This document shows positions 5,316 to 21,466 of a DNA stretch of 64,000 nucleotides, one piece after another (the first letter of the stretch is position 1; the number at the start of each line of letters is the position of its first letter). The DNA comes from a virus, in IMG/VR virus record IMGVR_UViG_3300049149_000013, positions 2,647 through 66,646 of that record; one strand, written 5' to 3'. Under the pieces are notes generated by a model. The model had not been told where the DNA came from and did no database searches. It worked only from the letters and a program-made list of their open reading frames with translations. The position numbers and the translations under genes were made by a program.

Positions 5316-5995
5316 TACTTTAAATCCTTCGGGTCAAAAACCGCGAGTGAGTTTAGATCATTCCTACCTGCTAGTTCGTCAGTTCCCATAAAATCCCGGT
5401 AATAGGCTGAATCATAACCTAACCCTTGCAAACGTTCTTGCATCTTCAGCAACTCGGGCGTACTCAGATTAATACCCATTGTAATCGATCTACGGGGCAG
5501 ACGGTCTATGTAAGTAAACCCTCGACTTGGTTCCCATTCAGGATCAGCAGCCAGGAACTTAGCTAGATTCTGTCCACTAGGCGCGAAGCGATCCGCGCGT
5601 TCCATTACGGCTTGTCGTAGCTGAGGATTATCCGAAAGCGCTGTCGAGAGCATATCATGGTAAAGGTCCCTTCCCATATTCCCAGGCAAGAGGGAAAGTG
5701 GATTTGATACATTAGGGTTAACCTCGAACACCTTATAACCTCGACCCCGATCCGCCGCTATCGCCGCTGCATGCTCGGGATGCTCCGCCAAATGCACAGC
5801 TCCAGGCAGAAGTGTGCCTCGTTCTCCAGGTATAATTCTAGTAAAGGTAGTAGGATCTGTTTTTCCCCCATGATACCATGGATGGCTCTGGATCTCCTCT
5901 AGTAACTGAGCTAGTCTCTCAGCTACGTTTACCTCGCCTCCGCCCGCGAAGTAACCCCCTAGCAGGACCACCCTGCGCCATTGCCGGTTCCTCAT
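5315..5995 (-). CDS. ADP-ribosyltransferase-like (ART-PolyVal-type) domain, probably the frameshifted C-terminus of the upstream large protein
   Basis: WYHG...GAVHLA...NPL...GYDS...LAVFDPKDLK pattern; FAGGGEVNVAERLAQL near its start matches MAGGGEIGLAERLAQL in the upstream ORF. Confidence 0.6.
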   Translation of the reverse strand: MRNRQWRRVVLLGGYFAGGGEVNVAERLAQLLEEIQSHPWYHGGKTDPTTFTRIIPGERGTLLPGAVHLAEHPEHAAAIAADRGRGYKVFEVNPNVSNPLSLLPGNMGRDLYHDMLSTALSDNPQLRQAVMERADRFAPSGQNLAKFLAADPEWEPSRGFTYIDRLPRRSITMGINLSTPELLKMQERLQGLGYDSAYYRDFMGTDELAGRNDLNSLAVFDPKDLK

Positions 5996-8900
5996 CCTCA
6001 GGCTGCGGCTGATACTCCTTCTGCATCCTGCCCAGATCCCGATTCGTCATCCTGCCCATAGCCTGCATAGCTATCTCACGACCCAGGGGAGCTTCCATCT
6101 CCTCCTGAGCCTCCGCTACATCGTCCGAGGTAAAGTGAATCGGCGCAGACGGACCGAAATAATTCTCATGCTTACCTATCAGCTCCTTCAGGCGCTCAAG
6201 CAGATCCCGATGAGCGTCTGCTCGCTGCTGAGTCTCTATCTCGTCATCGGACATTGCAGGCTCGGCGGGCGGAGGAGGTTCCCCCGGCTGACCTCCAATA
6301 GTCGGATGTTGCAGGGTGTGAAGTCTATTCCTCGTAGCTTCCCAGTCTATCCCACCACCCTCAGCCATCCCTCCCCCGCCCCCATCATCTACTCCCGAGG
6401 TTCCCGGCACGGTCGTATAGAGCGCAGGCGAACCATACATGTGTTTAAAGTGACCGCCTCTCGCCTGACCCGGAGGCTTATCATAGATGCTAGTCCAATT
6501 GCGGCTCTGAATATCCTTAGCATGCTCTGCCATCTCAGGACTGGTCTCGGCTACCTGGGTAAAGATATCCTGAGGCTTTGCTTCTGTTGCCCAGCCCCGG
6601 TTAAGGACATCGGCAGCATGGGCCTTCATCTCCGGGCTTGAGGTAAGTTTCTCCCAGAGCTGGGCGAGCCTCTCAGCAAGGCCGATCTCTCCACCCCCTG
6701 CCATGCGGGGAGGCGGCGCGCTCTGCCCCATAAACATTCGACGCTGGAGCAACTGATCTAAGAAGTTTTCCTCGGTCTCAGGAGGTGGGGTCTGCCCGCC
6801 TTCCGCCATGCCTGCCGTTACCGGACTTCCGCCCGGGAAGTGAACTGTCTGACCTTCATCTAGGCCACGCAGATGCCGTTGATAGGCTTCGTCGCCAATC
6901 TCCTTCTGGATATCCTTGCCGACGCTGGTATCTTCCGGTTCAACCGAGTTCGGGTCCGGTCCCTGATGCCTGGCATGTTCGATCATTTGTTCGGGACGCA
7001 TCCGGCCTCCACCGCCTCCACCCCTAAGTCGGTCGAGCGCATCCCCTGCCGAGCCTATCAGCGCGTTAAGGCTACCCCATTCGGTAGCCATTGCCGGCCA
7101 ACTACGCAACGGGGAAGCTCCTAGCCAACCCATTAAATGAGAACCTGCACCTTCGGCAGGAAGGCCCGGGATCGGGATAACCGCTGAAGGAGCTTCCTCA
7201 AAGAAATGTTGCTTAAACGTATGGGCTGGCGGTAATCCTACGCTACGTTGGATCTTCCCCTCAAGAGCCTCGGCCCGCTCACCTGCCGCTTTCGATCCAG
7301 GCATCATCGAGGAGATTGGATGACCCTTCGATTCGTCACCTAGGTTAGCTCCCAGCAATCTAGCCGGTAGTGTGGCATATCCCTCGAATAGCCGAGCGAG
7401 GGCATGAGGTGTCGAGTATAGCCTATCGAGTATCAGGGGAGGTGTAGACCCCGGACCGGGATGGAGAATATCCCCTCCTGCCACCAGATGACCTTGCGGA
7501 TCAGTACCATAAACCTGTTTTGCCAACGAGGTAACGGCACGCGCCGCAAGTTCCCCGGGAGGATTATCGGGGTCATCGTACTTAGCTGGATCTGTTCCAG
7601 CTGCCTTCATCTCCGCTGCCGCCTCGGCCTCTCTCTCAGCAATTGATCTCTGAACTCTATTTCTCAAAGCCGTAAGCGATGATTCGTAATCCGGCTGATA
7701 GTTCGCCGGGATACCCTCGTTACCCTTAATCGTTGGTCCGGTAATAAGGTCTGACAGGGAAGGACCACCTTCCTGGAAATGCTTGCGGGTCATCGGATTA
7801 GAGGTATAGGTTGGCTTCTGCTCCTCCTCGGATGCCTGCGCCAGCATATACTCCTGCATTTTCTTCAGAAGTTCCTTATGAGCTTCCTGTTCTTCGCCAG
7901 GTACTTGCCTCTCACTCTCAACTAGAACATTCTCAAGACTCGGCTGATCCCCTGTTGTCGAACCACCCTCGGCATGCTCGGTTACGGCAGGAGTCTTACC
8001 GGCTGCGGCCATACGGTCGTAGATTAGATCCTCAGGGTTAATACCGGACTGCTGCAACTGATTGCCTACCTGGCGGATATGGGCGGCATCGGCATCCTGG
8101 ATTTCCCCGACCGGCGTACGCATGAAATCATGGTACCTTTCGAGGAAGTGCTCAATAAGCTCGGAGAGGTTCACTGCGGTCTTAACCTCACCGCCCCCGG
8201 CCATGCCATGCTGCTGCCGTTCGTCCTCGCGCGAGACGAGGTAATCAGTGCTATACCCTAAGTGATGAAGGGCATGTCTTAGATGGTCCACTGGACCTCC
8301 GTGCTTCCAGACCGGTACGCCTGCTGCCTTAACGCGCGCTAAGTCATCTGGATTAGTCATATCAATTGCATTCTCAAATGTCTTTTTACGAAGTGGGTTC
8401 TGTTCAGGAGGCGCTTTATAAGTTTGCTCGTACCAGTCCCAGAGCGGACGCATCGACTCACCGGCCTCGCGGGATGCTTGCTCCCAGTTATAGTGCATAT
8501 TCTGGTAAGCACGGGAACGCTGCATATCCGCCCATGCCTGCTGATTCTTCGGCTCATCTTCTACCCAGTTATCCTCCTCATCGTAGTGGCCACTCTCCCG
8601 AGGACGGTACTGCATTTCTACATCATTAATTTCTTTGGCATGTTTGCGCATATCCGCAATAGCCTTATAAAACTTATCCTCCATCGTTCCTTCTGCGGCG
8701 GGAACGTCTTCACCAGTTTCGGGATTAAAGGCACCTAATCCCATCTCCTCACGTTTCTCTACTGGAACCTTATCAACCATATGCTGCCAGAGCCGTTCGT
8801 ACTTGCCTGGAACCTCGTACCTATTCCATTCATCGCCCTCGGCGTTTAGAACCTGGCGGATATAGTTATCAAGTGTCGGGTGGGCCCAATCGGGCACGTC

Positions 8901-10394
8901 CGCTAGTTCCTGTCCCCTAAAGTCGCCTATCTCCCGGGTAAAGGGTCGAGGAGGCCAGTTTAGATTCGGTTCTGGCTTCGCATGCAATGTAACGTCCATC
9001 GGGCGGTATGGTAACTGAAAGCGCTGTGCTAGATCCTTAAGTACCGAGGGATAACTGATATTATAGTTATAGTTCTGCCCCGTAGCTTGATCAGCACTAA
9101 AGCGACGGCCATAGAACGCATTCTGGTCGTTACCGCTCGCAAGTCCTAGTCCCATATCACCGGTATGCGCAGCGTCGGCCAATGCTTTGCGCATTTCCAG
9201 ACCGACAAACCCCTGAGTAGTCTTAAACGGTGTATCGGGGATTTTCGCTCTAAGCCGCGCCACCTCATTCTTCAAGGCATTTAATCTCGCCTGAAGATTC
9301 GGATCAGTATTGAATTGTAGATTTCCTTCCTGATCGAAATAAGGGGTCTGTGCCCGACGCATAACCGCATTCGGTTCACGGAAAAGCTCCATCCCCTCAA
9401 TCTCTCTGATCCGAGCTAGATCCGCAGGAGTTTGGTAACCGACCTTAGTAGCCTTCGACGCCTCACGGAGCTTTTGAAGTTCCTGCCAACGAGGGTCCTC
9501 AGCGAGTATATTCCCGCCTCGGGCACCCTCCGTTCCAAACCGGAGTGCATCGGTAATAACGTCACGCGCCCAAGGACCGGCCTGAAAGCCTTCACGATCA
9601 TCGAACATATTCGTCATCAGGTCCTGGGCCAGATCCTGCATGCGAGTAAGATTCTCAGGGGTAGGAGCCCACCCTCCTGGCTTAATCGCTTTCTGGTGCC
9701 GGTCGGATTGGATCTCGTCTATCACCCTCATCGTGCGGCCTTCGGGTGTACCGGTAGCACCCATACCGGTGCTCTCGCCCCAGAGTGGCAGACGGTTGCT
9801 GCGGTTCCAGGAGATATCCCGATCCGAGAAGTGGCTTTGATACTGACCGAAGTCCGGCGAGCGTGTCACGTCGAGCTGGTAAGCCTTAGCTCCATAAGGC
9901 GACGCTGGATTACCCGGCCCACTATCACCCCGCTCTGCATGGGAATACTCGGAATACTGAGGGCTTCCTGCCGTAACACGCCGCTGACCGCCTGCACCGG
10001 TAGTAGAAACACCTGCCTGGGCTAGTTGCCTCTGCTCGCGGGTCGTACCAGCTTGGGCAAGATCAGAACCGAGCTGTACGTTCAGGTTCGGAGCATTCTG
10101 CATATAGAGCTGGAGAATATCAGCTCGACTTACCTTCTGATTAGGCTTCAGTGTCTGGAGATAGGGAACAATCTTTGAATAATCAAGCTCCTCCTTCTTC
10201 AGAGGAAAATCTACACCGGCTCGGCTTGCGATCTGCCCGGGCTTAAGATAGCCAGCCCACTCCTGAGCAGTCATCGCCTCGCGGGGCGAATTATCGATCA
10301 GACCCTTTAGGGTAGAGAACATCCCATAGCGCGGGACCTTGCCGGTCAGATACTCGGCAAGATGCTCAAGCTCGGGTAAATTGATCTTAGGCAT
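5919..10394 (-). CDS. Large polyvalent / internal virion (ejection) protein
   Basis: About 1490 aa; likely start MPKINL right after the upstream stop; IDEIQSD motif of large polyvalent phage proteins; about 9 xAxGG-type motifs. Confidence 0.8.
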   Translation of the reverse strand: MPKINLPELEHLAEYLTGKVPRYGMFSTLKGLIDNSPREAMTAQEWAGYLKPGQIASRAGVDFPLKKEELDYSKIVPYLQTLKPNQKVSRADILQLYMQNAPNLNVQLGSDLAQAGTTREQRQLAQAGVSTTGAGGQRRVTAGSPQYSEYSHAERGDSGPGNPASPYGAKAYQLDVTRSPDFGQYQSHFSDRDISWNRSNRLPLWGESTGMGATGTPEGRTMRVIDEIQSDRHQKAIKPGGWAPTPENLTRMQDLAQDLMTNMFDDREGFQAGPWARDVITDALRFGTEGARGGNILAEDPRWQELQKLREASKATKVGYQTPADLARIREIEGMELFREPNAVMRRAQTPYFDQEGNLQFNTDPNLQARLNALKNEVARLRAKIPDTPFKTTQGFVGLEMRKALADAAHTGDMGLGLASGNDQNAFYGRRFSADQATGQNYNYNISYPSVLKDLAQRFQLPYRPMDVTLHAKPEPNLNWPPRPFTREIGDFRGQELADVPDWAHPTLDNYIRQVLNAEGDEWNRYEVPGKYERLWQHMVDKVPVEKREEMGLGAFNPETGEDVPAAEGTMEDKFYKAIADMRKHAKEINDVEMQYRPRESGHYDEEDNWVEDEPKNQQAWADMQRSRAYQNMHYNWEQASREAGESMRPLWDWYEQTYKAPPEQNPLRKKTFENAIDMTNPDDLARVKAAGVPVWKHGGPVDHLRHALHHLGYSTDYLVSREDERQQHGMAGGGEVKTAVNLSELIEHFLERYHDFMRTPVGEIQDADAAHIRQVGNQLQQSGINPEDLIYDRMAAAGKTPAVTEHAEGGSTTGDQPSLENVLVESERQVPGEEQEAHKELLKKMQEYMLAQASEEEQKPTYTSNPMTRKHFQEGGPSLSDLITGPTIKGNEGIPANYQPDYESSLTALRNRVQRSIAEREAEAAAEMKAAGTDPAKYDDPDNPPGELAARAVTSLAKQVYGTDPQGHLVAGGDILHPGPGSTPPLILDRLYSTPHALARLFEGYATLPARLLGANLGDESKGHPISSMMPGSKAAGERAEALEGKIQRSVGLPPAHTFKQHFFEEAPSAVIPIPGLPAEGAGSHLMGWLGASPLRSWPAMATEWGSLNALIGSAGDALDRLRGGGGGGRMRPEQMIEHARHQGPDPNSVEPEDTSVGKDIQKEIGDEAYQRHLRGLDEGQTVHFPGGSPVTAGMAEGGQTPPPETEENFLDQLLQRRMFMGQSAPPPRMAGGGEIGLAERLAQLWEKLTSSPEMKAHAADVLNRGWATEAKPQDIFTQVAETSPEMAEHAKDIQSRNWTSIYDKPPGQARGGHFKHMYGSPALYTTVPGTSGVDDGGGGGMAEGGGIDWEATRNRLHTLQHPTIGGQPGEPPPPAEPAMSDDEIETQQRADAHRDLLERLKELIGKHENYFGPSAPIHFTSDDVAEAQEEMEAPLGREIAMQAMGRMTNRDLGRMQKEYQPQPEDEEPAMAQGGPARGLLRGRRRGKRS

Positions 10395-10395
10395 C

Positions 10396-13300
10396 TTACT
10401 GACCCTGCTGCGGAGTAGGCGTAAGCGCTGCCGCTCCACCGCCTGCCGTAGCTCCACCGATTAAGCCAGAGACGTTCTTCTGGCTCCGTAACGCATCAGC
10501 TGTCTGCTGGAGTCTGCTCATCTTCTCCCTAGCATGAGGATCGTTCGCCATAGTTCCCATCGTCTCGGAAATCTCACCTGCCTTGCCCGGGCGCATTAGC
10601 TGACCTCGGACCATCTGACCTATCGAGAGCGGCTGCTGGCTAATATTCAAACCTGCCTCTCCCGCTCTGATCAAACGTCGGCCGGTTCCAAAGACCTCTG
10701 CCTGGCGGGTAAGAGAATCGATAAACCTCTGACCCTCCGCTGGATTATCGAAGATCGCCATAATCTTCGCCTTCAGGTTCGGGTTAGCTACTACAGCCAT
10801 CGCGGTATTACGGTTAGCTCCCATATTGCCAATCTTCTGCATAATGCCTTCGGCTACACCGGTGCGGTACGCATCCCGGGCACTCCAGTCGAGCTTGCCC
10901 ATCAGTTGCTTGACTTCCTCAGGAGTCAGCTTATCGAAGGTCTCCCGGCCACCGCGCAGTGCATCCATAATATCGAGGTCGCCCGCGTACTGATCGCGAG
11001 CCTCCCGGTAGGGACTGCGGCCATTCGGCAGCGTAGTAGCCTGATCGAGTTCCTTTACCAGGTTAGAGCGCATATCACGCAGGATACGACCCTGCGGCGA
11101 CGCCTGGTAGTTAATGCCGGTACCCTCCTCCTGGAGAATCATCTGATCGAGTGCCCGCTTGACTTCATCAAGGTATTGCAGGGTAGGATTCTGCACCATG
11201 CCTGCTACGTCTGGGCGACCGATAGGTATCATCCTATCCTGCATCATACGAAAGGCCCGCGCCGACGCTTCTTGACCGCTAGGAGTATTCAGGATCTGGG
11301 AGAGCGTCTGCGTCTTGACACTTGGGAATTGTGAAAATGCCTGATCATAAAGCGGCGCGGCTTTAGTATAGAGAGCATTCCTCAGCTCCTCGGTCTTGGC
11401 GTAGTAATCATCGGGCTTAAGACCCCGGTTGACTATATCGCCAGTCCCACCTGTCATACCTGCCTCGCGCTCCTGCAAGGCTCCGAGCAAAGCATTCGAC
11501 TCTGGCACATCCTTGCGTATCGCTGCCGAGGTCAATCCAACCGAGCGTGGCCCCGCAGCCTCGGCTACCGTTGACGGTATGCCCATACGAGCGTCTTTCG
11601 CCAGAATATCAGCAATTTCCCTGACGCCTCCTTCTGGTCTATCGAGATTCATCGCCTCAAGCGACTTACGCACTCCTGGCCCCGCAGAACGGGTAAGCTC
11701 GTTGGTAAGCCTCAGGAGAGGAGCGGAAGCACCACGACCGGCACCCGCAAGCAGTGGGCCAAGCATCGCACCGCTGGCTGCTCCCGGGAGAAAGTCATCG
11801 CCACCTCCCATCTCGCCTGATATCCCGCCGGTCAGTGCGCCTACTCCCGAGGCAGTCAGGTGAGGATGACGAGCCATAAAGCGTGCTGCCGCAGCTGGCC
11901 TGCGCAGGGCTGCCAGACCTGCTGCCGTAGTAGCGCCAGCCCCCAGAGCTTCCCCTAGTAAGTTTTCAGCCGGGGAATCCGGATCTTCTGGACGCCCCGC
12001 AGCCTTAAGTGATAATCCCTGGATAAGAGCATTCAGAGAGTTCCTTATCTCGGGATCAGCCTGCTCGGGCTGTCCACCTTCCTGCATACCTCTTTTAAGC
12101 CTATCTAATTGCTCCTTGAAAGTTTGTTCAAACTGTTCCTCATAGCGTTGAAGTTCGGTATCTTCTTCCCGGCGTTTCTGGTCGGCTTGACGAGCCTCAT
12201 AATCTGAAAGATGCTCAACCGTCTGTTCGTTAGGATCGTAAACCCTAGATAGGTTCTTGGAAGGCCCCTGTTCCTCTACCTCACCGCCTTCCGCCATACC
12301 TCCGGCAGGCTGCGTATCCGAAGGCTGAGGATGATAGCTAACGTCTGGCTCCTGGGTCCCGGGAGGTCCCGCACCTGGCGCACCTACTTCCTCGGTCTGA
12401 ACCTGGGGATTCTGATTCCTAAAGTAATCCTTCCAGTCCATCCGCTTCGGATTTAGAGGCTTCAGTCCATTCTTCAGGAATGGCGCACTATGGTCGAAGA
12501 TCGGGTTATCATTAATATACGTATCCCAAGCCTGAGTAGCACCCGCCAATGTTCGGTGGAGTCCGAAATATGCCTGTTCAAACTGGTGCCGTTGCAGATT
12601 ATTATTCAGGGTAATGCGTAGAGCCTCGGCAATGGCATCGTTGGTAGCCTTGGGCTTATCCGTACCGATCATTGCTGACTGGAAGAGACCGAGGTCGCGG
12701 TTTGTAACGCGCCCGAAGCCTTTCGAGGGAATAGCCTGCGCAACAGTATCGGCAGCGAGCTTATCCATCGTCTGAATGCTAGACTTCAGGTGAGCTACGA
12801 TTGAAGGAGGCCAGATATTAATACCACCCTCAGTACCTACCTCGGCACCGGCACCGTGCGGCCCCGCGTGTATCCCTCCGATACGTACTGGAGCGATCAT
12901 AGGACCTGTAGCCGTCGTGGTATTTAACTGCTGAAACTCATCAAGGTTCCGCAGAGCTTTCATCATCTGCTCATCGTTCGCACCGTAGTCAGCAAACTGC
13001 TTATCAGCGGCTTTCTGTTCGCTACTATAGAAGTTCTGGCGTTGCTTAGTTGACATATGCACAACATCGGGCATGCCAACGGGATTAAACGGCACGCCCG
13101 CCAGATTCGCATTCTCAAGCTTCTCCTCAGGGGTTAGTTGGGTCTCATCGATACCTGCCCGCGCCTTAGCCTCCGCAATGGCCGTATCGTTCAACTGCTT
13201 AACCAATGCACGGTAGGCAGGGCTAAATCCACTACCTGGATCCCCGGGAACTAGATAAGCCCGTGGACCGAGCTGATCTAGCGCTATCTTACCGAAGCTG

Positions 13301-13938
13301 GACTGAGGCTTCATCCCCGCCTGTTGCGCAGGGGTAGTAGCCATACGACCGAGAGCGGTCATAGCCGACTTGCCCAGCTCGGTCTCTTGCCGTTGCATCA
13401 TCTCCAGGAGCTTGCGCTTACCCTCGGCGGTCTGAGTATCGATACCCCTGATCTTCTCGGCTAGGTCAGCACCACCGAGAGTCTGGAGGTATTGCATGAT
13501 TGCCGTGCGCTGTTGTGCCGCCTGAGCTGCCTCCTCTTGAGCGATCTGTCCTAACTGAGACTGAAGCGCTCCATACATGCCTACGCCCGGGACCGGCTTC
13601 GCTGCCGCAGCCTGGATCTGGAGAGCCTTCTCATGCTCGCTCGGAACACCATACTTCCAGTAGTTTTGCAAAAGAATCTGCTGGGCATTTCTAAGTGCTG
13701 CCTTGGAAGCCTCGGCGCTGCTCTCTATGTCCTTACCGATCTTCTCGGTTTCACCCTCATGCTTGCCGATACGAGACAGGATCTTGCGAGCTTCGTCCTG
13801 AGCTTCCTTGGTCGTAGTCGCCTGCGTAGCGCCAGCCGGGATAACGTCGGGATCACCCTCACCCCGAATACTCTCAAGTGCCGAGCGTACGTCATCGGGC
13901 GATGCCGTCTGGGAAACAATGTCTTCTGGTGTTGACAT
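10396..13938 (-). CDS. Large internal virion / DNA injection protein
   Basis: 1180 aa, helical with Gly/Ala-rich hydrophobic stretches; position matches the P22 gp16/gp20-type ejection module. Confidence 0.75.
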   Translation of the reverse strand: MSTPEDIVSQTASPDDVRSALESIRGEGDPDVIPAGATQATTTKEAQDEARKILSRIGKHEGETEKIGKDIESSAEASKAALRNAQQILLQNYWKYGVPSEHEKALQIQAAAAKPVPGVGMYGALQSQLGQIAQEEAAQAAQQRTAIMQYLQTLGGADLAEKIRGIDTQTAEGKRKLLEMMQRQETELGKSAMTALGRMATTPAQQAGMKPQSSFGKIALDQLGPRAYLVPGDPGSGFSPAYRALVKQLNDTAIAEAKARAGIDETQLTPEEKLENANLAGVPFNPVGMPDVVHMSTKQRQNFYSSEQKAADKQFADYGANDEQMMKALRNLDEFQQLNTTTATGPMIAPVRIGGIHAGPHGAGAEVGTEGGINIWPPSIVAHLKSSIQTMDKLAADTVAQAIPSKGFGRVTNRDLGLFQSAMIGTDKPKATNDAIAEALRITLNNNLQRHQFEQAYFGLHRTLAGATQAWDTYINDNPIFDHSAPFLKNGLKPLNPKRMDWKDYFRNQNPQVQTEEVGAPGAGPPGTQEPDVSYHPQPSDTQPAGGMAEGGEVEEQGPSKNLSRVYDPNEQTVEHLSDYEARQADQKRREEDTELQRYEEQFEQTFKEQLDRLKRGMQEGGQPEQADPEIRNSLNALIQGLSLKAAGRPEDPDSPAENLLGEALGAGATTAAGLAALRRPAAAARFMARHPHLTASGVGALTGGISGEMGGGDDFLPGAASGAMLGPLLAGAGRGASAPLLRLTNELTRSAGPGVRKSLEAMNLDRPEGGVREIADILAKDARMGIPSTVAEAAGPRSVGLTSAAIRKDVPESNALLGALQEREAGMTGGTGDIVNRGLKPDDYYAKTEELRNALYTKAAPLYDQAFSQFPSVKTQTLSQILNTPSGQEASARAFRMMQDRMIPIGRPDVAGMVQNPTLQYLDEVKRALDQMILQEEGTGINYQASPQGRILRDMRSNLVKELDQATTLPNGRSPYREARDQYAGDLDIMDALRGGRETFDKLTPEEVKQLMGKLDWSARDAYRTGVAEGIMQKIGNMGANRNTAMAVVANPNLKAKIMAIFDNPAEGQRFIDSLTRQAEVFGTGRRLIRAGEAGLNISQQPLSIGQMVRGQLMRPGKAGEISETMGTMANDPHAREKMSRLQQTADALRSQKNVSGLIGGATAGGGAAALTPTPQQGQ

Positions 13939-13939
13939 A

Positions 13940-14953
13940 TCAATTTCTCACTAAACAACCTAGCGCACCTACGCGACCACCTCTTGCGCCAGGATTCGAG
14001 AAGAGTGATTGCATGCCGGTAAGTGCGCCAAGGAACGGAGTCTGTGATCCGCCTTGCTGCCACGGAACAACCTGCTGCTGGGTCGTAGTGCCGCCAGGAG
14101 TTGTGCCGGGGATCGTACCCTGCATAAGTCCCTGCAACCATCCGAGTTGCTGGTACGGCCATTGCTGCTGCTGACCAAACTGCTGACGAGCATAATCGAG
14201 GTTCGCTTGCTGGTTCGCCTGGAGTTCCTGACCTGCAACGTCGAGCGCTCCTGCACCCTGAAGACCGAGTTGCTGACCAGTACCGGCAAGCTGTCCGAGC
14301 GCACCGGCACCCTCGTAGCCGAGACCCCCATATGTCTGGCCTAGCGCCCCGAGAGCCTGACCCCCGGCCAGTGCCGATTGCTGAGCATTGGTATACGCAT
14401 TCGCCAAAGCAGCCTGCGAGGTATCCTGGATATTCTGGGTAATCTGTTTAGCCGCCTGTCCGAGTGCGCCGACATCGCCCGAGGACATCGGCTGGCCTGC
14501 CGCCGTAAACTGATTCGTAATCGACGGCATCAACTGATTCTGCCAATACTGCGTCGCGGTATCCTCGGCCTTCTGGATTACGTTCTGAGTATACGGATTC
14601 ATCATATCCGGGGTTACATTCATCGAGCGGTTAACAGCCGCTTGCGCTCCCGGCAGCATGCCTAGCCCACTGGTAAATCCCTGAGTTCCCAGGTTAATAG
14701 CCGAAGTCAGAGTAGGTTGATACCCTCCCTGCAAGCCCGAGACGATTCCTGCTGCCTGCTGGCTATACGGAGTCTGGCCCGCTACTCCCGGCCCTTGGTA
14801 TGCCTGGTAGGGCTGGGACGCTAGCGCTGCACCTTCCGACAGAATTCCCTGAGCATAGTCCTGCAACCAGGTAGGAACATTCGTCGTATTCTGCCCAGTA
14901 TTAGTTACCTGAGTGGGAGGTGTGCCCTGAAAGAGCATATCTAAGGAACCCAT
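13940..14953 (-). CDS. Putative DNA pilot/ejection protein
   Basis: Gln/Gly/Ala-rich 337 aa in the ejection module; C-terminal ARGG. Confidence 0.65.
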   Translation of the reverse strand: MGSLDMLFQGTPPTQVTNTGQNTTNVPTWLQDYAQGILSEGAALASQPYQAYQGPGVAGQTPYSQQAAGIVSGLQGGYQPTLTSAINLGTQGFTSGLGMLPGAQAAVNRSMNVTPDMMNPYTQNVIQKAEDTATQYWQNQLMPSITNQFTAAGQPMSSGDVGALGQAAKQITQNIQDTSQAALANAYTNAQQSALAGGQALGALGQTYGGLGYEGAGALGQLAGTGQQLGLQGAGALDVAGQELQANQQANLDYARQQFGQQQQWPYQQLGWLQGLMQGTIPGTTPGGTTTQQQVVPWQQGGSQTPFLGALTGMQSLFSNPGARGGRVGALGCLVRN

Positions 14954-14954
14954 T

Positions 14955-17285
14955 TTACTTTCTCCCCTTACCCATATAGGCAGCCGGGGGCTTCGCCTTC
15001 ATAAACTGTTTACCTTTCGACATCGGCTTGGCAGCACTGCGGCGCAGGTTCTCACGCAATTGATCAAGCTTCGCTGCGCCTGCCTTATTAGAGCCATTGC
15101 CTAGCAGACTTACGGTATTCGCATCAAACACGTACTCGCCATCGGAAAGCTGTGCCGGGATATTGTCGCTAGTCCCGTCGCCTGGGCCTACGGCATGATG
15201 CTGCACAGCAGAGTCAAACTCGGGCATTAGCGCATCTAATGCAGAACCTCCTCGGGCACGGCCAGGAGGCATACGAGGGCGAGGTACCGGCATCTGTGGC
15301 GCAGGAGCAGCGGGGGGTGTAGCAGCTGTCGGCGGTGGAACTAGACCGGTCATCTGCGTCATTGGCATCTGGTTATTCTGGAAGAACTGAGCCTCCGGAC
15401 GCTGGCCGTACGTATACCAATCCTGCAAGCTCATCGGTCCGCCGCCCGGAAGATTCGATGGTGCCATATTCTGAGTGCGGTTAAAGATCGGTGCCCGTGG
15501 CGCAGTCGCCCCTTGCGTCATCCCCGGGGCAGCAGTCGGGGGTTTCAAGTTGGTATGCGGTCTGCCAAGCCCGAATAATGGCGCAACCGCAGCCCCAGCC
15601 TTCAGAGCATTCAGCATACCGGTGATACCACCCTGGCCGGTAAGGTTCTTCCAAGCATTCTGAAGATCTCCCTTAACGGTATGACCAGCCGGTGCATTCG
15701 GGTCCGGACTCTGGCCGACTATCTTTCCATTCTCATCTATAATCTGACCGTCCTTCGTAACCATCAGACCTGAGTTAGGGTCCCAGGCACTTCCATTCGG
15801 CAGATATACTATATCACCAGGTTCTTCGCCTCCGCCACCGCCTCCTCCTCCTCCTCCCCCTGATGGAAGAGTAGGACCCATCTCGGGAGGTGGAGCCGAG
15901 GGTTCCGCAGCCAGGTAGTAGGGAACGTCTCCCCCGCTATCACTAGAGAAGTCCCCACCAGTATCCCCACCGTCCTGGAAATGCTTGCGAGCATAGCGTG
16001 CGGCACCCCGTTCGAGATGATCGAGGCCGGATCGCTTCTTCATAAGACCACCTTCTGCACGTAAACCGAATTCAGGGGCCTGCGCCATCGCCGGTTGAGG
16101 CGTAGGACTATAACTCATTGACTGAACCGTAGGAGCGGCCATGCGAGCCGCCTGTTGAGGATTGCCTGCCCAGAATGCTTGAGTAGCTGCCTGCGTCGCA
16201 GCCGGTTGCGCCGCCTGGGTACTGCCCCAACCGGAGAACTTCGTTCCCGCCTGAGGTGACCAGCCCTGATTCTCGTAAGCACCCATAAGGCTCTGGATAG
16301 AACTCTGTAATGCCGGAGTCTCAAGAGTACCCTTAGAAGTACGAGCATTCGGGTCCCAGACATTACCCTTAGACGCTAACCAGGGATCGATAACCTTCGT
16401 CCACTGATCCTGAATCGACATATTCGGATTAATCTGACCAGAGGCGACAGCCTTATTAATCTCCTGTCCCATCTGGTTCATCATATTCTGCTCACCCATC
16501 CTACCGAAGATTCGTTCAACTGCCTCCGAATGACCAGGAGTAAGGTTTCTAGCATCCATAATACCGGCGAGGTTCGTCATAGCCTGCTGCGGACTTATTA
16601 CATTCTGACTAACCATCTGAGCTTGTTGTTGTGGATTCAACTTATTGAACTGCTGGGCAAACGCATTAAACTGACCGGTCTCCGGATCTACCGCACCACC
16701 ACCGAAGGCTGAGCTAAGTGCTCCGACCCCACCACCGATAAGCCCGCCAATGAGAGTCCCGATTCCCGGCACGATGGAACCGATAGCGGCACCTGCCTCG
16801 GCACCCTGTAGCGCGTCTGAACCCGTACTCCCCGACTTCCAGTTACTAATGGCATTATAGACGGCAAGCGGCGCAAGAACATAACCACCCATCGTAGACA
16901 TCAGGGGATTATTGAGCAGCAGTCCCGCTCCTTGAAGTCCTGAACCTAATGCCTGTCCGTAACCCTGAAATCCTCCTCGCTGTAATCCTTGGATAACGCC
17001 GAGCGCATCGAGCGCACCGGTCGCACCCATATTAAGATTCTTCGCCGTGCTCGGATCAAAACCCAAACCAGTAAGCGCACTGCCTGCCTTACCCCAGTTC
17101 TGAGTACCGAGCTTCGCTAGATCTGCGGCAGCACCTATATCCCCGGTAAAGCCTCCCCGCTCGATATTGCCATAGAGACCCGCAGCGGTTCCAGCCGCAC
17201 CTAACCCTGGGCCTAATGCAGTCCCTTTGCTAAGAGTACCGCTCAGATTGAGCAGTGCCCGTTCTCTTGGTGTCATGAAAGCCAT
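14955..17285 (-). CDS. Internal virion protein with a glycine-zipper region and a TMP-like C-terminal domain
   Basis: GAAIGSIVPGIGTLIGGLIGG glycine zipper; C-terminal GPGDGTSDNIPAQLSDGEYVFDA. Confidence 0.75.
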   Translation of the reverse strand: MAFMTPRERALLNLSGTLSKGTALGPGLGAAGTAAGLYGNIERGGFTGDIGAAADLAKLGTQNWGKAGSALTGLGFDPSTAKNLNMGATGALDALGVIQGLQRGGFQGYGQALGSGLQGAGLLLNNPLMSTMGGYVLAPLAVYNAISNWKSGSTGSDALQGAEAGAAIGSIVPGIGTLIGGLIGGGVGALSSAFGGGAVDPETGQFNAFAQQFNKLNPQQQAQMVSQNVISPQQAMTNLAGIMDARNLTPGHSEAVERIFGRMGEQNMMNQMGQEINKAVASGQINPNMSIQDQWTKVIDPWLASKGNVWDPNARTSKGTLETPALQSSIQSLMGAYENQGWSPQAGTKFSGWGSTQAAQPAATQAATQAFWAGNPQQAARMAAPTVQSMSYSPTPQPAMAQAPEFGLRAEGGLMKKRSGLDHLERGAARYARKHFQDGGDTGGDFSSDSGGDVPYYLAAEPSAPPPEMGPTLPSGGGGGGGGGGGEEPGDIVYLPNGSAWDPNSGLMVTKDGQIIDENGKIVGQSPDPNAPAGHTVKGDLQNAWKNLTGQGGITGMLNALKAGAAVAPLFGLGRPHTNLKPPTAAPGMTQGATAPRAPIFNRTQNMAPSNLPGGGPMSLQDWYTYGQRPEAQFFQNNQMPMTQMTGLVPPPTAATPPAAPAPQMPVPRPRMPPGRARGGSALDALMPEFDSAVQHHAVGPGDGTSDNIPAQLSDGEYVFDANTVSLLGNGSNKAGAAKLDQLRENLRRSAAKPMSKGKQFMKAKPPAAYMGKGRK

Positions 17286-17521
17286 TAGTAGGGTACTACC
17301 TGGTTAAACCTAGAAGCCCAGTCTACCCAATCATCGAAACCTCGCGGATCAGCAACATCGAACGACTCCAGTCTTGCAGCCTGCATTAGATCAAAAGCCC
17401 AGTCCTTCCAGTTATCAGGATTATCAAGTCTGCGTGGAGTCACTCCAAACTGATCTAAGGGAAGCATAATGAAGTCTGCCCATTCGCGAACGTCCCTCAT
17501 CCCCCGAGGATCTACGATCAT
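17285..17521 (-). CDS. Small Trp-rich phage protein
   Basis: Translationally coupled on both sides; WxDWA repeats. Confidence 0.7.
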   Translation of the reverse strand: MIVDPRGMRDVREWADFIMLPLDQFGVTPRRLDNPDNWKDWAFDLMQAARLESFDVADPRGFDDWVDWASRFNQVVPY

Positions 17522-19041
17522 TGCGTAATCCTCCCGTTATCAGGCTCGATATGGGCAAGCGTCTTTCCCATATAATAGAAACCACCCGCTACGTTAGATT
17601 CAAACCTAAATCTCAGAAGTCGGCGGGCCTCCTTAAACCGGACTATTTGCTGGTCCGCAGGGAGAGGAGAGCCAGACTGATCAGGATAGGTAACGCTCTG
17701 ACTCTCGATATCACTGGCCCGAGGATTCGCCCGCCCGATAGCCGTTACGGTTACATCACCTATCTGAACCATATCCGGCTCGATTATATCAACGCGCATG
17801 CACTTATCAAGACCCTGATCGAGAAACTCCTTCTCATCGGTTACAAAGTAGGAATCAATCGGCTGGACGTTCTGACCCGTAATCGCATCGTAGCCGGTCT
17901 CATGCTGCCAGAGGGTATACAAGCCACCTCCGGTCCCCGGATCGGTTAATAGGGGGAAAGGGTATGTGCTCGGGAAGTATCCTGAGGTCCGACCCGATCC
18001 CGGTAGGTTTGTATCATACCACGTCCCTTCGCGGACGTTATAGATCACTGCCTTGTTGCACTCGGTCGCATTGCCGAATGGGAAGCAGAACCATATCTCG
18101 CCCCAGCGCGGCACTTTAAAGACAAACGCCTTCTGGCGCTGCGTCATATTAATGCCGTCGAAGAAGAAGCTTAGGTTCAGCTGGTTAGGCACTTCACGTA
18201 CGACGCCATTGAACATCAGGAATCGATCTACTCCCATCCAGAAGTAGATACCATCGTACTCGATTACTCCTTGAGAGGATAGAATCGAACACGTATCCGA
18301 AACCGTATTGAATCTAAACGGTACACCGGTCAAAATCGCAGCGTCGAAGGTCGCCATGATCAGCGAGTCGAGTGACCAAAGCAGGAAGGCTGGGCCTCCA
18401 GCATTACGCAAGGGTAAGCCTTTGACGATCTTCTGGCCAGTGACGAAAGCTTGACCGAGAGGCGCACCGGCAAGGTTATTGATTGCCGAACAATCGACAC
18501 GCCCGTTATTCCCATAGCTAATCAGGTAGGGATAGATGGCAACGATTCCACCCGACTGGTTAGCCATTGCACTAGCTACTAATGCCGTACCTGCCGTAAT
18601 CGGCCCATAATAGATCGGCGTCTCAACGGCATTAGTGATATCCGAGAGATTCAAGCCCGGGTGAGCGCAGATATTATTCACTCCGCCCGAGGTCGTATAC
18701 ATCACATCGAACTGCCAAAGGTTATTCGGATTCGACGCAAAGCCTCCAGGCGTACGATCTACCTGAGCTAGGAAATTACCCTGAGAGTTTGTCTGCACCT
18801 GATTAACGTGAGCAATGCCCCCCATATGGGTATAATTAACCCCTGCCTGCTGGTAAGACTCCATGCCCCGGGCAGCCTCGGGGAGAGCCTGCGTAACCGA
18901 CTGGTACCCGGCCATCTTCCTCGGACGACCACGGTAGAAGCGACACCACTGGCCATCGGAATACTCGTGACCATCATAACGAGTACCGTCCCGACGAATC
19001 CCGGGCTGGGATTTAATCTCGACTGGCTTCGTCGTAGACAC
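17518..19041 (-). CDS. Tail hub / packaged-DNA stabilisation protein (P22 gp10-like)
   Basis: Beta-propeller-like composition; GEIWFCFP...AVIYNVREGTWY; position just before the ejection genes. Confidence 0.7.
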   Translation of the reverse strand: MSTTKPVEIKSQPGIRRDGTRYDGHEYSDGQWCRFYRGRPRKMAGYQSVTQALPEAARGMESYQQAGVNYTHMGGIAHVNQVQTNSQGNFLAQVDRTPGGFASNPNNLWQFDVMYTTSGGVNNICAHPGLNLSDITNAVETPIYYGPITAGTALVASAMANQSGGIVAIYPYLISYGNNGRVDCSAINNLAGAPLGQAFVTGQKIVKGLPLRNAGGPAFLLWSLDSLIMATFDAAILTGVPFRFNTVSDTCSILSSQGVIEYDGIYFWMGVDRFLMFNGVVREVPNQLNLSFFFDGINMTQRQKAFVFKVPRWGEIWFCFPFGNATECNKAVIYNVREGTWYDTNLPGSGRTSGYFPSTYPFPLLTDPGTGGGLYTLWQHETGYDAITGQNVQPIDSYFVTDEKEFLDQGLDKCMRVDIIEPDMVQIGDVTVTAIGRANPRASDIESQSVTYPDQSGSPLPADQQIVRFKEARRLLRFRFESNVAGGFYYMGKTLAHIEPDNGRITQ

Positions 19042-20798
19042 TATGCCATCCTTATCAGCATGAAATGTGAACCTAAGTTTATTATAGTAGAGCTAACATG
19101 CGAAATAGCCTGGGTCCATATCAATATCATCGAGGTAACTCCGGTAGCAACGAAGTGACCTTCGATATTAAGCTGAGTGGCGTTACTATTACCGGCACTT
19201 ACAACGCAAGCATTATTACCAGCATTACCACCCTGTCCGTAGCGAGCTGAGGTATTATTATCCAGAGCAAAGATATTGTAACTCCCTATGGAAAGATTAG
19301 CACCCATCTGAAGCTCCGCCTGTACCCCGCCTCCGGCACAACTCCAACTAGCAATACCCTTAATCTGATAGGTCCCTGCCGGAATATTAGTCAGCTGCAA
19401 TACGCTATCGTTGACAAATACTGTACTACTAGTTACGCTCTGAGTCGTAGATCGATAACAGTAAGCGATCTGACCTGCAACCATTGTCGAACAGTTTAGA
19501 GTTGTCGATCCATTATTAATCAACGGAGGAACTATCGTACCAATGAGATTCAGAGTAACGTTCGCTGTTAGCGATCCACCACCGGTCAGATTAGTCCCGG
19601 CAATAACCTGGGTCGATGTCGGCACTGCGCTGATAGCCGAGGTCGCTGCCGCTGCATTAATTGCCGTAAAGACGTTGATGCCTACGGTCGTACCACCGAG
19701 ATTGGTAAGAGCAACCGGGGCTGTCGTTGCACCCGTACCGCCTTGACCAATGGTTATCGGGAAAGCTACGGTATTGGTCAAAGCATTAACTACGTTCGTT
19801 CCATCACAGTAGAGAATATAACGATTATTCTGAGGGATAGTAGGCGGGCCTATCTGAGCTACTGTTCCTACATCAAGTGAGAAAGCTCCGGTAGTCTCGT
19901 TATCAACCCAATACTCTTGGGCCGTGCCTGGAACGATAACATGCCGGTTGCCGGTAAGCAGACCTGTAAGCTTATACCCTATCTGATTAAGTTGCCCACC
20001 CGAGAGAGTATAGTTACCCGATCCCGAAACGTCAATCGAGACAAGGTTAAATGCTCCTCCACCTGCGGTCGCTCCACCCTTCAGAGTAAAGTAATTCGCT
20101 CCATCGGTCAGGTACCACGTCGAGGCTGCTGGAGCAACGGTATCGCTAGCGTTCCCATCGACCAATGCACCACCCGGGTTTACAGTAACGTTACCACTAC
20201 CTTGATTCTTAACGACTACGAACCATCCAGCACCTACGGTAGCGGGAGCTAACAGGTTAAAGGTACCTACGCCTCCAGTCCACTGGAGCACCGTAGCACG
20301 ATCCGTATTCTGAACGTTATAGGGGCTAGTATTCTTCGGCTGGACTACCATCTGCTCGTTCAAGGTCGAGCCGATAGCCGTAAGGCCCGAGCCTGCCAGC
20401 GCTGCGGCAACCGCTACCGAGACTGAGGCACCAAACTGGAAAATACGCCACGTACCACCGGCAGTCGTATTATCAACTAAGTAAAGCTGCCAGACCGTTC
20501 CGGATACCAGAGATAACAGGGTGGATCCGGTATTGCTAAGAACCGAGGTAGTCTGGCCGCTAATGTTATTGAAGAGAGCCGTATACCCCTGTGTAACCTG
20601 GCGTGCGTCGGGCAGCGAGACTGAAAGCCCGGGAGCGCTCGGGTTCAGATCGATAATATCAGTAACTACCAGAGCACCAGCGATAGCCTGCTCGACAGGC
20701 CAGGAGAGCTGAATATTCGATGAATAGTTCAGCTGACTATAAGTCGGTTCTACGGGATAAATGTTATTCCCGCCGAAGACTTGACTAAACCCAGGCAT
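19041..20798 (-). CDS. Tail fibre/spike-like structural protein
   Basis: Beta-rich, Thr/Gly-rich; IGQGGTGAT...LTNLG fibre motif. Confidence 0.7.
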   Translation of the reverse strand: MPGFSQVFGGNNIYPVEPTYSQLNYSSNIQLSWPVEQAIAGALVVTDIIDLNPSAPGLSVSLPDARQVTQGYTALFNNISGQTTSVLSNTGSTLLSLVSGTVWQLYLVDNTTAGGTWRIFQFGASVSVAVAAALAGSGLTAIGSTLNEQMVVQPKNTSPYNVQNTDRATVLQWTGGVGTFNLLAPATVGAGWFVVVKNQGSGNVTVNPGGALVDGNASDTVAPAASTWYLTDGANYFTLKGGATAGGGAFNLVSIDVSGSGNYTLSGGQLNQIGYKLTGLLTGNRHVIVPGTAQEYWVDNETTGAFSLDVGTVAQIGPPTIPQNNRYILYCDGTNVVNALTNTVAFPITIGQGGTGATTAPVALTNLGGTTVGINVFTAINAAAATSAISAVPTSTQVIAGTNLTGGGSLTANVTLNLIGTIVPPLINNGSTTLNCSTMVAGQIAYCYRSTTQSVTSSTVFVNDSVLQLTNIPAGTYQIKGIASWSCAGGGVQAELQMGANLSIGSYNIFALDNNTSARYGQGGNAGNNACVVSAGNSNATQLNIEGHFVATGVTSMILIWTQAISHVSSTIINLGSHFMLIRMA

Positions 20799-21466
20799 TA
20801 GGCTTTACTCCTGACAGCTTCGCGATCCGCGATCTTCTGAAGATCCTGCTGATCGACGGTCGCAAGCTGTTCCTGGTAGAGAGCCTGCCAGGTCGGGATG
20901 CGCTCATCGTTCTTCAGGTAGGGAGTGGCCTCCAGCAACGCGCGGTAGAGCAAAAGATTGGGCGCGTAATCGGTAAGCCAGTTCGTCTGGTTACTGCTAT
21001 CGAGCAACGCAGGTTGGGTATAGTAATTAACCTCCCAAGGGAAATTGATTGCTGGGGTAGGCACGATCAACCAGTGATTAAACTCATAATCAGCATAGAA
21101 CTTCGGCGGCTTGGTCGCATCCGAGATATTGGCATTAGGCCAATAGGCACGGCAATATTCGTACGATCTTGGGAAGAGTGGCTGCCGGTAGTTCTGAGCC
21201 GGATCGGCAACGGTCGCTACTCCGTAATTCATCGAGACCGTCTGCCGCCAGCCATTCGGTTTCTGATAGACCGAAGTACCCGCTACTAACCCCGAAACTA
21301 CAGGAGTCAGAAAGCCCTGCACCTTTATGGCCGTAGCAATGGCTCTCTCCGCCAGGTTGATAAGGCGCGGAATCTGGTTTGCTACCTGCACGTCCAGAGG
21401 CGTACCCCGCTCCAGATATGATTGCATATCTGCGGTGAGCGAGTTGAAAGTCATTGAGGTCGGCAT
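20798..21466 (-). CDS. Head-tail adaptor (P22 gp4 / T7 gp11-like)
   Basis: INLAE...TNWLTDYAPNLLLYRALLEA.PYLKNDER pattern. Confidence 0.75.
   Translation of the reverse strand: MPTSMTFNSLTADMQSYLERGTPLDVQVANQIPRLINLAERAIATAIKVQGFLTPVVSGLVAGTSVYQKPNGWRQTVSMNYGVATVADPAQNYRQPLFPRSYEYCRAYWPNANISDATKPPKFYADYEFNHWLIVPTPAINFPWEVNYYTQPALLDSSNQTNWLTDYAPNLLLYRALLEATPYLKNDERIPTWQALYQEQLATVDQQDLQKIADREAVRSKA

Follow-up and report, generated by a model that had tools for sequence, protein, structure and literature searches.

The C-terminal segment of a 776-aa protein encoded by an uncultured podovirus (positions 14955 to 17285, minus strand) is, as judged by sequence comparison, a real conserved module that also occurs near the end of the tape measure proteins (TMPs) of long-tailed phages. 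With slightly better than even confidence, we interpret it as a non-enzymatic, self-pairing end module, built from a beta-hairpin and two helices, of a TMP-like ejection (internal virion) protein, with the xAxGG motif in front of it probably acting as a cleavable boundary. The module, which is unnamed and very widespread, comprises approx. 75 to 100 aa in the order flexible [hydrophobic or Arg]-A-x-G-G boundary, glycine loop, predicted hairpin (IPAxLS / GE[YF]V), short helix and long helix, and the podovirus form adds a basic tail after the long helix; in long-tailed phages, the same module is placed 70 to 100 residues before the TMP end, with several copies in at least one giant TMP. The window analyzed here is a stretch of 64,000 nucleotides (positions 2,647 to 66,646 of IMG/VR record IMGVR_UViG_3300049149_000013) from a complete 66,646-bp virus.

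The last 124 aa of the protein matched seven PHROG families, six of which are named tail length tape measure protein (E 2.2e-5 to 6.2e-3), and all seven matches were located on the motif. Among PDB sequences, phmmer identified the TMPs of mycobacteriophage Douge (E 0.0012), in which the motif occurs twice, and of Pseudomonas phage JBD30 (E 0.046); the Douge match improved to E 3.4e-6 when a profile was used. The AVIO78A TMP also matched the module (E 5e-7), as did TMPs of Arthrobacter phages (tblastn). These similarities, which are far above chance, agree with the reading initially made from the sequence alone (hereafter, the sequence-only reading), which had matched the segment to the one that follows FAxGG in many TMPs. 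Similarity to annotated TMP copies was significant over the core (i.e., the glycine loop and IPAxLSxGE[YF]V), represented here by GPGDGTSDNIPAQLSDGEYV. The siphophage TMPs (JBD30 gp46, residues approx. 1019-1066; Douge gp16, residues 971-1004 and 1419-1450; AVIO78A, KS9 and PA1/KOR/2010) have a similar glycine loop and hairpin and likewise carry xAxGG directly upstream of the GPGTGTSDSIPAxLSNGEFV segment. In these TMPs, on the other hand, the module is internal (68 to 92 aa before the C-terminus in AVIO78A, KS9 and PA1/KOR/2010) and is followed by a coiled coil that, according to excerpts of the structural reports, sits in the baseplate hub, while in the 776-aa protein it is placed at the very end, with an added basic tail, in a phage without a long tail.

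Of 1.84 billion cluster representatives scanned, 8,919 matched the module at E ≤ 1e-3, and 2,196 still did so at E ≤ 1e-10; a strict motif regular expression fitted 59 of the 150 representatives listed, and in 57 of these 59 the start was located 70 to 84 residues before the C-terminus. When a 54-aa module copy from P0094, a 3,816-aa TMP with five matched stretches, was used as tblastn query, 1,374 of 50,697 phage records were matched, including records with Mycobacterium (507), Gordonia (344), Pseudomonas (203) and Vibrio (96) as hosts; among the 60 matching records listed, 48 were annotated as tape measure. The module is among the most common unnamed pieces of phage tail proteins (thousands of clusters and, by this one tblastn query, approx. 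2.7% of deposited phage genomes), and neither Pfam nor NCBIfam has a model dedicated to it. A literature search for the motif strings found no paper. The 30 nearest clusters in the ESM Atlas had no Pfam family in common; the nearest cluster with a Pfam family was a crAss cargo-protein cluster (0.84), which represents a weak lead.

At the C-terminus of the 776-aa protein (all positions on the minus strand), the sequence confirms the earlier description of RARGG followed by a conserved segment. RARGG itself, the xAxGG boundary motif (residues 676-680; positions 15246 to 15260), is separated by a 19-aa linker, SALDALMPEFDSAVQHHAV (residues 681-699; 15189 to 15245), from the core GPGDGTSDNIPAQLSDGEYV (residues 700-719; 15129 to 15188), which consists of the glycine loop and a predicted beta-hairpin (NIPAQL / EYV). 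The protein then continues as FDANTVSLLGNGSNKAGAAKLDQLRENLRR and ends in a helical, basic tail; residues 722-752 (15030 to 15122) comprise the short helix (ANTVSLL), a GNGS loop and the long helix (NKAGAAKLDQLRENLRR...), and residues 753-776 (14958 to 15029) the basic tail PMSKGKQFMKAKPPAAYMGKGRK. Among the 43 aligned sequences of alignment A1, A3, G5 and G6 of xAxGG were kept in at least 90%; invariant residues were found in the core (G26, G28, G30, D33, A37, L39, G42, E43, Y44 and V45), in the helix region (G55, G57, A61, G62, L66 and R70) and in the basic tail (G84, A90 and Y96, with K91 kept in at least 90%). PEF, which is part of the linker, is also kept in the tandem family (E122 and F123 are invariant in alignment A2), and the tandem model described below places a short strand at its EFV equivalent. 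An xAxGG-type motif was present in 59 of 62 module-bearing ORFs. The window carries a single module copy.

The remainder of the protein is far less conserved. Among 154 full-length relatives, conserved regions were limited to residues 697-776, plus 161-200 and 621-640, and the basic tail showed a mean identity of 0.51. Among 80 related loci searched by tblastn, the N-terminal 674 aa were matched in only one, the C-terminal module alone being conserved across these loci. The second most conserved region is a glycine-rich hydrophobic stretch (residues 161-194; positions 16704 to 16805, minus strand; identity 0.45-0.50), on which the matches to phrog_24596 (residues 152-208) and to the TMP family phrog_23574 (residues 134-192) fall; residues 19-256 overall showed PHROG matches to a TMP family and to a tail-associated-lysin family. 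This stretch is probably a membrane-inserting segment, as in TMPs, but is located near the N-terminus here and just upstream of the module in the TMPs examined.

As a SU10-type adaptor protein is encoded in the window (positions 20798 to 21466, minus strand; PF24175 SU10_adaptor, E 1e-20; homologue in 57 of 80 related loci), the phage is short-tailed. Its capsid protein shows 76% identity to those of Caulobacter phages GB2A, RW, RLK and KcrB, in which the homologue of the 776-aa protein ends in the same module. A 507-aa virion structural protein (positions 17518 to 19041, minus strand; phrog_3287, E 4.8e-30) represents a nozzle candidate, a name suggested by the SU10 gene order (excerpts of PMC9509320). 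In 70 of the 80 related loci, tblastn placed its homologue approx. 3.5 kb upstream, the strand being the same in 69; the module-bearing gene thus comes after the nozzle candidate in these 70 loci, as it does, directly, in the window. A homologue of the downstream neighbor, a 337-aa protein (positions 13940 to 14953, minus strand) that matches phrog_4287 (named DNA ejection protein; E 7e-6), begins directly after the module-bearing ORF in 57 of 80 related loci (tblastn). Pfam and PHROG scans of 26 window ORFs recognized no prohead protease, in agreement with the sequence-only reading, and no tail tube or tail chaperone gene. The gene of the 776-aa protein is thus not placed in a long-tail setting, between tail assembly chaperones and a distal tail protein; its neighbors are instead the SU10-type adaptor, the nozzle candidate and the phrog_4287 protein. 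This gene order, together with the adaptor, sustains the earlier placement of the protein among podovirus ejection genes, and the gene order suggests that it functions as an ejection protein. In the excerpted reports on phages SU10 and A4, the ejection genes (SU10 gp20-24 and A4 gp26-29) come after the nozzle and needle genes, and their products are thought to lengthen the tail across the envelope (PMC9509320, PMC12002296). The likeness to these and other podovirus ejection proteins is one of gene order, and the same excerpts do not mention a TMP-type module for the SU10 and A4 proteins. The 776-aa protein would most likely be the podovirus counterpart of a TMP, i.e., a channel-forming ejection protein, and the module, as the sole conserved part of a protein encoded beside the nozzle candidate, would tie podovirus ejection proteins to TMPs by homology and not only by analogy.

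Structure predictions point to a module that folds when paired. The single module (102 aa from the window) gave an AlphaFold monomer model with a mean pLDDT of 55 and a pTM of 0.30, which is too low for a fold search; helices were predicted at positions 48-53 and 60-78, and the same elements reached a pLDDT of approx. 90 in the model of a natural tandem pair (P0034; 52-sequence alignment). In this tandem model (pTM 0.59), ten-residue blocks had pLDDT values of 74-96 over residues 111-250, with all blocks but one at 80 or above, and each copy was predicted to form the same hairpin and two helices. Immediately ahead of this confidently predicted part, LASGG, the equivalent of RARGG, fell in blocks with low to moderate pLDDT values (47 and 63). 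The contact between copies is suggested by the pTM and the contrast with the monomer model, from one AlphaFold model of a tandem relative. A three-copy complex prediction for the module (alignment A1) reached a best score of 0.29 against a mark of 0.42 and was run without controls. For JBD30 residues 1022-1066, which include the motif, two helices and a short hairpin were also predicted by the authors of that structure (excerpts of PMC11445458), and the module region is described as disordered in the cryo-EM maps of JBD30 (PMC11445458), Douge and lambda (PMC12617516), again according to excerpts. If the module requires a second copy in order to fold, as these models suggest, proteins with a single copy, such as the 776-aa protein, probably pair through it between subunits. 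The module would then be used for assembly or docking, as a conserved end on a protein that otherwise evolves fast, and the xAxGG motif before it would form an exposed hinge where cleavage may occur during maturation, as it does in T5. Calcium-binding (RTX-like) and foldon-like trimer readings arose from visual inspection of the sequence only and were dropped.

The sequence-only reading had proposed that the module could itself be a small protease or reader that acts on xAxGG motifs in cis and in trans; it would then replace the missing prohead protease. This proposal is consistent with the placement of xAxGG just upstream of the module, with the lack of a recognizable protease in the ORFs scanned, with the conservation within the podovirus family of D33 and E43 (invariant in A1) and of S32 and S40 (kept in at least 90%), and with the report that the enzyme cutting lambda gpH is unknown (excerpts of PMC12617516). 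No peptidase family, on the other hand, was matched in Pfam, NCBIfam or the PHROGs, and the conserved Asp, Ser and Glu do not behave as an active set: when the module types are compared, the Glu of GE[YF]V alone is almost always kept. TMP copies, the second tandem copy and lambda have lost or exchanged Ser32, Asp33 and Asp47; three P0094 copies have Asp in place of Ser32, neither the second tandem copy nor lambda has the SD pair, and the position of Asp47 varies (N, R, K, T or P). Foldseek searches of the PDB with the tandem model gave no match at E ≤ 0.001 (best E 0.18), and the VIA wide search gave no Z ≥ 5; its best Z of 4.1 covered the helix pair only, most rows lying over residues 214-258 with the hairpin part barely covered. 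Six chains reached Z ≥ 2 in a second look at the Foldseek matches; the best was a 20S proteasome subunit (Z 3.1 over 53 aligned residues), and Lon accounted for two rows (Z 2.4 and 2.2). These values are far lower than those at which chance matches are frequent. A BFVD search with the same model gave only uncharacterised phage proteins. In addition, folding of the module by itself is not predicted, T5 pb2 is cut at AEGG without the module, and Caulobacter phage GB2A and 18 of 35 related loci carry the module without motif-rich proteins. We thus assign only a very slight probability to an enzymatic or reader function. Hardly more credible is a role in binding peptidoglycan, or in assisting its cleavage, once the expelled protein has reached the envelope. 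In favor of this idea, several P0094 copies flank lytic-enzyme-like regions, and the T5 fragment after the cut reportedly contains a motif that shows muralytic activity (excerpts of PMC10038345). The module is also found in phages of both Gram-positive and Gram-negative hosts, so that any cell-wall target should be universal. No cell-wall-binding or hydrolase family and no fold were matched, however, lambda virions are described in the excerpted report as lacking such an enzyme (PMC12617516), and the T5 segment is not detectably the same module.

A further alternative, which overlaps with the preferred end-module reading and differs from it in the main function, is that xAxGG and the module act chiefly as a signal for cleavage during maturation. 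In this view, some protease of host or phage origin would cut one residue before AxGG and free a C-terminal peptide of approx. 100 aa, equivalent to pb2C of T5 or gpHC of lambda, and the remaining xAxGG motifs in large virion proteins of this phage would likewise be cut. The cut in T5 pb2 was mapped by mass spectrometry to the bond after R1127 (Linares 2023; excerpts of PMC10038345), the R of FVPR|AEGG, which puts it exactly before AEGG in a protein with only two xAxGG motifs in 1,219 aa. The fragment released there (92 aa) and the part of the 776-aa protein that begins with RARGG (101 aa) are of similar size, and in the tandem model the equivalent motif falls in a region of low confidence directly ahead of the fold. 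T5 is long-tailed, though, and the module HMM gave no match in the C-terminal region of pb2, including the sequence after AEGG; the T5 cut is therefore evidence for the motif but not for the module. It is also the single mapped cut site, a literature search for other mapped TMP cleavage sites having found nothing relevant. Motif counts are in part consistent with multiple cut sites. Two proteins of the window, of 1,512 aa and of 365 aa (the latter at positions 25634 to 26731), each contain seven xAxGG motifs (0.76 and 0.44 expected, respectively; 0 of 2,000 shuffles reached seven in either case), and in 62 related loci 112 motifs were found downstream as compared to 67.9 expected, with numbers upstream near expectation (60 as compared to 53.3). 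Where 2,000 aa or more lay downstream (35 related loci), however, 18 loci had two motifs or fewer (i.e., chance level), and GB2A lacks motif-rich virion proteins. Since the residue before the Ala varies (R, F, M, H, Y or L), no known protease specificity fits. The idea that the motif marks a processing site thus gains one data point, while the earlier assignment of the module as its protease or reader finds no support; a primary function in cleavage signaling appears rather unlikely.

Lambda provides a partial parallel. A cut of gpH at FATGG would, as computed, yield fragments of 79.6-80.1 and 12.2-12.7 kDa, compatible with the published fragments of approx. 78 and 14 kDa, for which the responsible protease is stated to be unknown (excerpts of PMC12617516), but a cut near residue 710 fits these masses equally well. 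Residues 731-782 of gpH (FHFATGG...RGEFVFTKEATSRIGVG...YATGG), at the start of gpHC, share with the module the order xAxGG, glycine loop, PA, GEFV and second xAxGG, lie equally far from the C-terminus and adjoin the gpH to gpH* cut as given in the excerpted text (PMC12617516); they lack the SD-x-IPA part. Direct similarity of gpH to the module HMM was not significant, the NCBIfam model TIGR01541 (tape_meas_lam_C) did not match the module at E ≤ 10 (gpH 700-853 scores 1.4e-42), hhalign gave a probability of 0.8%, and the seven PHROGs matched by the module and the 14 matched by the gpH C-terminus did not overlap. The module and gpH are connected only through an AVIO78A chain (E 5e-7 and E 1e-3), which suggests a weak link. 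The coincidence between the T5 cut and AxGG provides a concrete and cheap prediction for the unmapped gpH cut.

More broadly, xAxGG and the hairpin-helix module could form a cassette, universal among proteins that pass through phage tails, which serves both in maturation and as a joint, an extension that we regard as improbable. Two copies would clasp each other, either enclosing a cargo domain within the same chain, in giant TMPs, or joining separate chains, in podovirus ejection proteins, and the clasp would present the flexible xAxGG for a cut one residue before the Ala, perhaps aided by the module. If so, the 1,512-aa and 365-aa proteins would be polyproteins cut inside the virion, and gpH would be cut to gpH* at F733/A734. 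The natural tandem form, for structure determination, and Caulobacter phages GB2A and RW, for proteomics, represent tractable objects. The 776-aa protein also carries a second motif of the RAEGG type (LRAEGGL; residues 409-413; positions 16047 to 16061, minus strand), with the same letters, RAEGG, as the T5 pb2 cut site.

The 776-aa protein encoded at window positions 14955-17285 (minus strand) carries RARGG at residues 676-680, followed by the 19-aa linker SALDALMPEFDSAVQHHAV, the core GPGDGTSDNIPAQLSDGEYV (residues 700-719; window 15129-15188, minus strand) and FDANTVSLLGNGSNKAGAAKLDQLRENLRR, after which the basic tail KGRK ends the protein. Re-reading of the sequence showed that the sequence-only reading had described this C-terminus and its coordinates correctly. 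When 154 relatives of 550-900 aa were aligned, the window protein showed an identity of 0.5-0.78 to them over residues 697-776, as compared to 0.45-0.50 over a glycine-rich hydrophobic stretch (residues 161-200), 0.49 over residues 621-640 and low values elsewhere; the variable middle part includes a run of 12 glycines (SGGGGGGGGGGGGEE; residues 475-487, window 15825-15863, minus strand).

The window belongs to a virus record of 66,646 bp that is rated complete; the phage encodes a large terminase and an SU10-type adaptor, and its capsid protein shows 76% identity with those of Caulobacter phages GB2A, RW, RLK and KcrB. Genes on the minus strand are ordered adaptor (222 aa), a 585-aa protein, a nozzle candidate (507 aa, phrog_3287), the 776-aa protein with its C-terminal module, a 337-aa protein (phrog_4287, named DNA ejection protein), and proteins of 1,180 and 1,512 aa. 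In SU10 (PMC9509320), the genes of ejection proteins gp20-24 come after the nozzle and needle genes, and it is therefore by gene order that the 776-aa protein is a candidate ejection protein. Its GB2A homologue (gp065c, 580 aa), annotated as a tape measure protein (TMP), likewise ends in MARGGYAVKGPGTGRSDSIKANLSDGEYV. Viral contigs were subjected to a pattern scan that yielded 595 matches, 442 of them confirmed relatives; 80 loci were retained and searched with the window proteins by tblastn. Only 1 of these 80 loci matched the first 674 residues of the 776-aa protein; a homologue of the nozzle candidate was present in 70 loci (in 69 on the same strand; ~3.5 kb upstream), one of the adaptor in 57 and one of the 337-aa protein in 57, the last starting directly after the module-bearing ORF. 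Conservation of the C-terminus only, together with conserved neighbours, thus places the constraint on the module, within a protein that otherwise evolves fast amid conserved tail genes.

Of the seven PHROG families matched by the last 124 aa (E 2.2e-5 to 6.2e-3, every match on the motif), six bear the name tail length tape measure protein. Sequences of proteins with solved structures yielded two matches only, both TMPs: gp16 of mycobacteriophage Douge (1,699 aa; motif at 971-1004 and 1419-1450) and gp46 of Pseudomonas phage JBD30 (1,158 aa; motif at about 1024-1052). The proposed TMP likeness of this segment was thereby upheld as above chance, and the module's presence in TMPs is already implicit in the PHROG families; scans of the module against Pfam and NCBIfam found no model covering it. 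As only the last 33-42 TMP residues are resolved in the Douge and JBD30 (PMC11445458) structure papers, the motif itself is without a solved structure. HMMER searches of 1.84 billion cluster representatives returned 8,919 proteins with E<=1e-3, of which 2,196 also passed E<=1e-10. Among the matches listed, 59 of 150 fitted the strict motif regex, with the motif starting 70-84 residues from the C-terminus in 57 of the 59, and all 120 relatives of 426-1,358 aa were without a name or called hypothetical; many of these sit on 60-67 kb contigs.

A 54-aa module copy from P0094, a 3,816-aa TMP with five matched stretches, several of which adjoin lytic-enzyme-like regions, found matches in 1,374 of 50,697 phage records (hosts including Mycobacterium, 507; Gordonia, 344; Pseudomonas, 203; and Vibrio, 96), and 48 of 60 among the matches listed were annotated as tape measure. 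The TMPs of AVIO78A, KS9 and PA1/KOR/2010 carry the module 68-92 aa from the C-terminus, where it is preceded by a hydrophobic Gly/Ala stretch and xAxGG (FATGG, LATGG, FAGGG). An 848-aa hypothetical protein of Acidovorax phage AP1 (L006 3444-5990) has an N-terminal module that is split, with GPGTGTSDSIPA and SNGEFEV ~30 residues apart. Residues 731-782 of lambda gpH show the same order of elements as the module; direct tests between the two were not significant, their PHROG families did not overlap, and the only link is a chain through AVIO78A (window, E 5e-7; lambda, E 1e-3), by which the module is probably related to gpH.

A single module (the window's last 102 aa; AlphaFold, 43 sequences) was modelled as helices only (pLDDT 55, pTM 0.30). 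A large subfamily, comprising P0032, P0034 and about 50 further proteins, carries two C-terminal modules in tandem, the second copy without the G-x-G-x-SD loop. For P0034 (258 aa; 52 sequences; pTM 0.59), ten-residue blocks over residues 111-250 had mean pLDDT of 74-96, all but one at least 80, and each copy was modelled as a hairpin (DIPAML/DYV; VPARIA/EYV) followed by two helices, the first short and the second long; the JBD30 authors predicted two helices along with a short hairpin in the corresponding stretch (PMC11445458). The contrast between the tandem and single models suggests that folding of one module needs a second copy, and the two P0034 copies would be in contact. LASGG, ahead of the first copy, falls in blocks with pLDDT 47 and 63, outside the confident fold. 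With the tandem model, Foldseek against PDB gave a best E of 0.18 and the VIA wide search a best Z of 4.1 (a helix pair). In a second look, Z peaked at 3.1 for a proteasome subunit and was 2.4 and 2.2 for two Lon rows, values no better than noise; in BFVD only uncharacterised phage proteins were matched.

Using the pattern [MFYLHRWIV][AQ]xGG and 2,000 shuffles, 7 motifs were counted in the 1,512-aa protein (0.76 expected; no shuffle reached 7), 7 in a 365-aa protein (0.44 expected; 0/2,000) and 4 in the 776-aa protein (1.07 expected; 30/2,000), as compared to 0-1 in each of the tail, portal, terminase and capsid proteins. The enrichment in the window phage is real and is not linked to the module. 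Co-occurrence of module and motif-rich proteins, which had been proposed as a check, proved weak: GB2A's other virion proteins hold 0-2 loose matches apiece, and among the 35 loci whose downstream ORFs add up to at least 2,000 aa, 18 had <=2 motifs, 9 had 3-4 and 8 had 5 or more. Motif totals over loci were 112 downstream (67.9 expected) and 60 upstream (53.3 expected), counts that include some spurious frames because every Met-starting plus-strand ORF of at least 100 aa was taken; the module-bearing ORF was found by regex in 62 of 80 loci, and the remaining 18 were left out.

Linares et al. (PMC10038345) mapped the cut of T5 pb2 to the position after R1127 by mass spectrometry, and a metallopeptidase motif is reported in pb2. 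R1127 is the R of NSFVPR|AEGGMMYPG in the T5 record; as pb2 (1,219 aa) has only two xAxGG, exact coincidence has a chance of about 2 in 1,218. The module HMM did not detect the module in pb2. A mapped cut at AEGG in a protein without a detectable module supports xAxGG as a cut mark and speaks against the module as the enzyme. AEGGMMYPGVSYQMGEHGTEVVTPM directly follows the cut in pb2 (L007 14122-17781), and the record's note ties pb2 to InterPro IPR000834. For lambda, the gpH paper (PMC12617516) puts gpH* at about 78 kDa after the loss of about 14 kDa and describes site and enzyme as unknown; computed cuts at FATGG (79.6-80.1 + 12.2-12.7 kDa) and at residue 710 (77.7 + 14.6 kDa) each fit these masses.

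The sequence-only reading had cast the module as a candidate protease or reader of xAxGG motifs. This we consider very improbable, as no peptidase profile matched in Pfam, NCBIfam or PHROGs, no residue set beyond one Glu is kept across copies, a single module is not predicted to fold alone, fold searches with the tandem model returned no significant match, co-occurrence is weak and T5 is a counter-example. A role at the cell wall is scarcely more probable, and that xAxGG and module form purely a processing cassette seems rather unlikely. We lean towards reading the module as the end piece of a TMP-like ejection protein, self-pairing and not enzymatic, with the xAxGG ahead of it as a flexible hinge that may be cut. 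As far as the literature searched goes, the module as the podovirus protein's sole conserved part, the confidently predicted tandem fold and the coincidence of the T5 cut site with xAxGG are new.

Neither the 1,512-aa (5919-10457, minus strand) nor the 1,180-aa protein (10396-13938, minus strand) had a PHROG or significant Pfam match, the latter giving one sub-threshold Pfam match; as listed, the 1,512-aa ORF begins with GTG and shares 62 bases with the end of the 1,180-aa ORF, so its true start may be further downstream. The repeat of the 365-aa protein (25634-26731, minus strand) has the form (N/R)-(K/R)-L-A-x-G-G in 7 copies, with weak family matches only. Between the portal and capsid genes, a 173-aa protein (31043-31564, minus strand) has a GroES/Cpn10-like domain (PF00166, E 1.3e-4; phrog_3188). 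Two bacterial-looking plus-strand genes at the end of the phage genome, within the complete record, encode a 440-aa protein with sulfotransferase (PF17784, E 3.3e-34) and glycosyltransferase domains (1240-2562) and a 216-aa protein with a C-terminal PEP-CTERM sorting motif (2867-3517; PF07589, E 9.7e-7).
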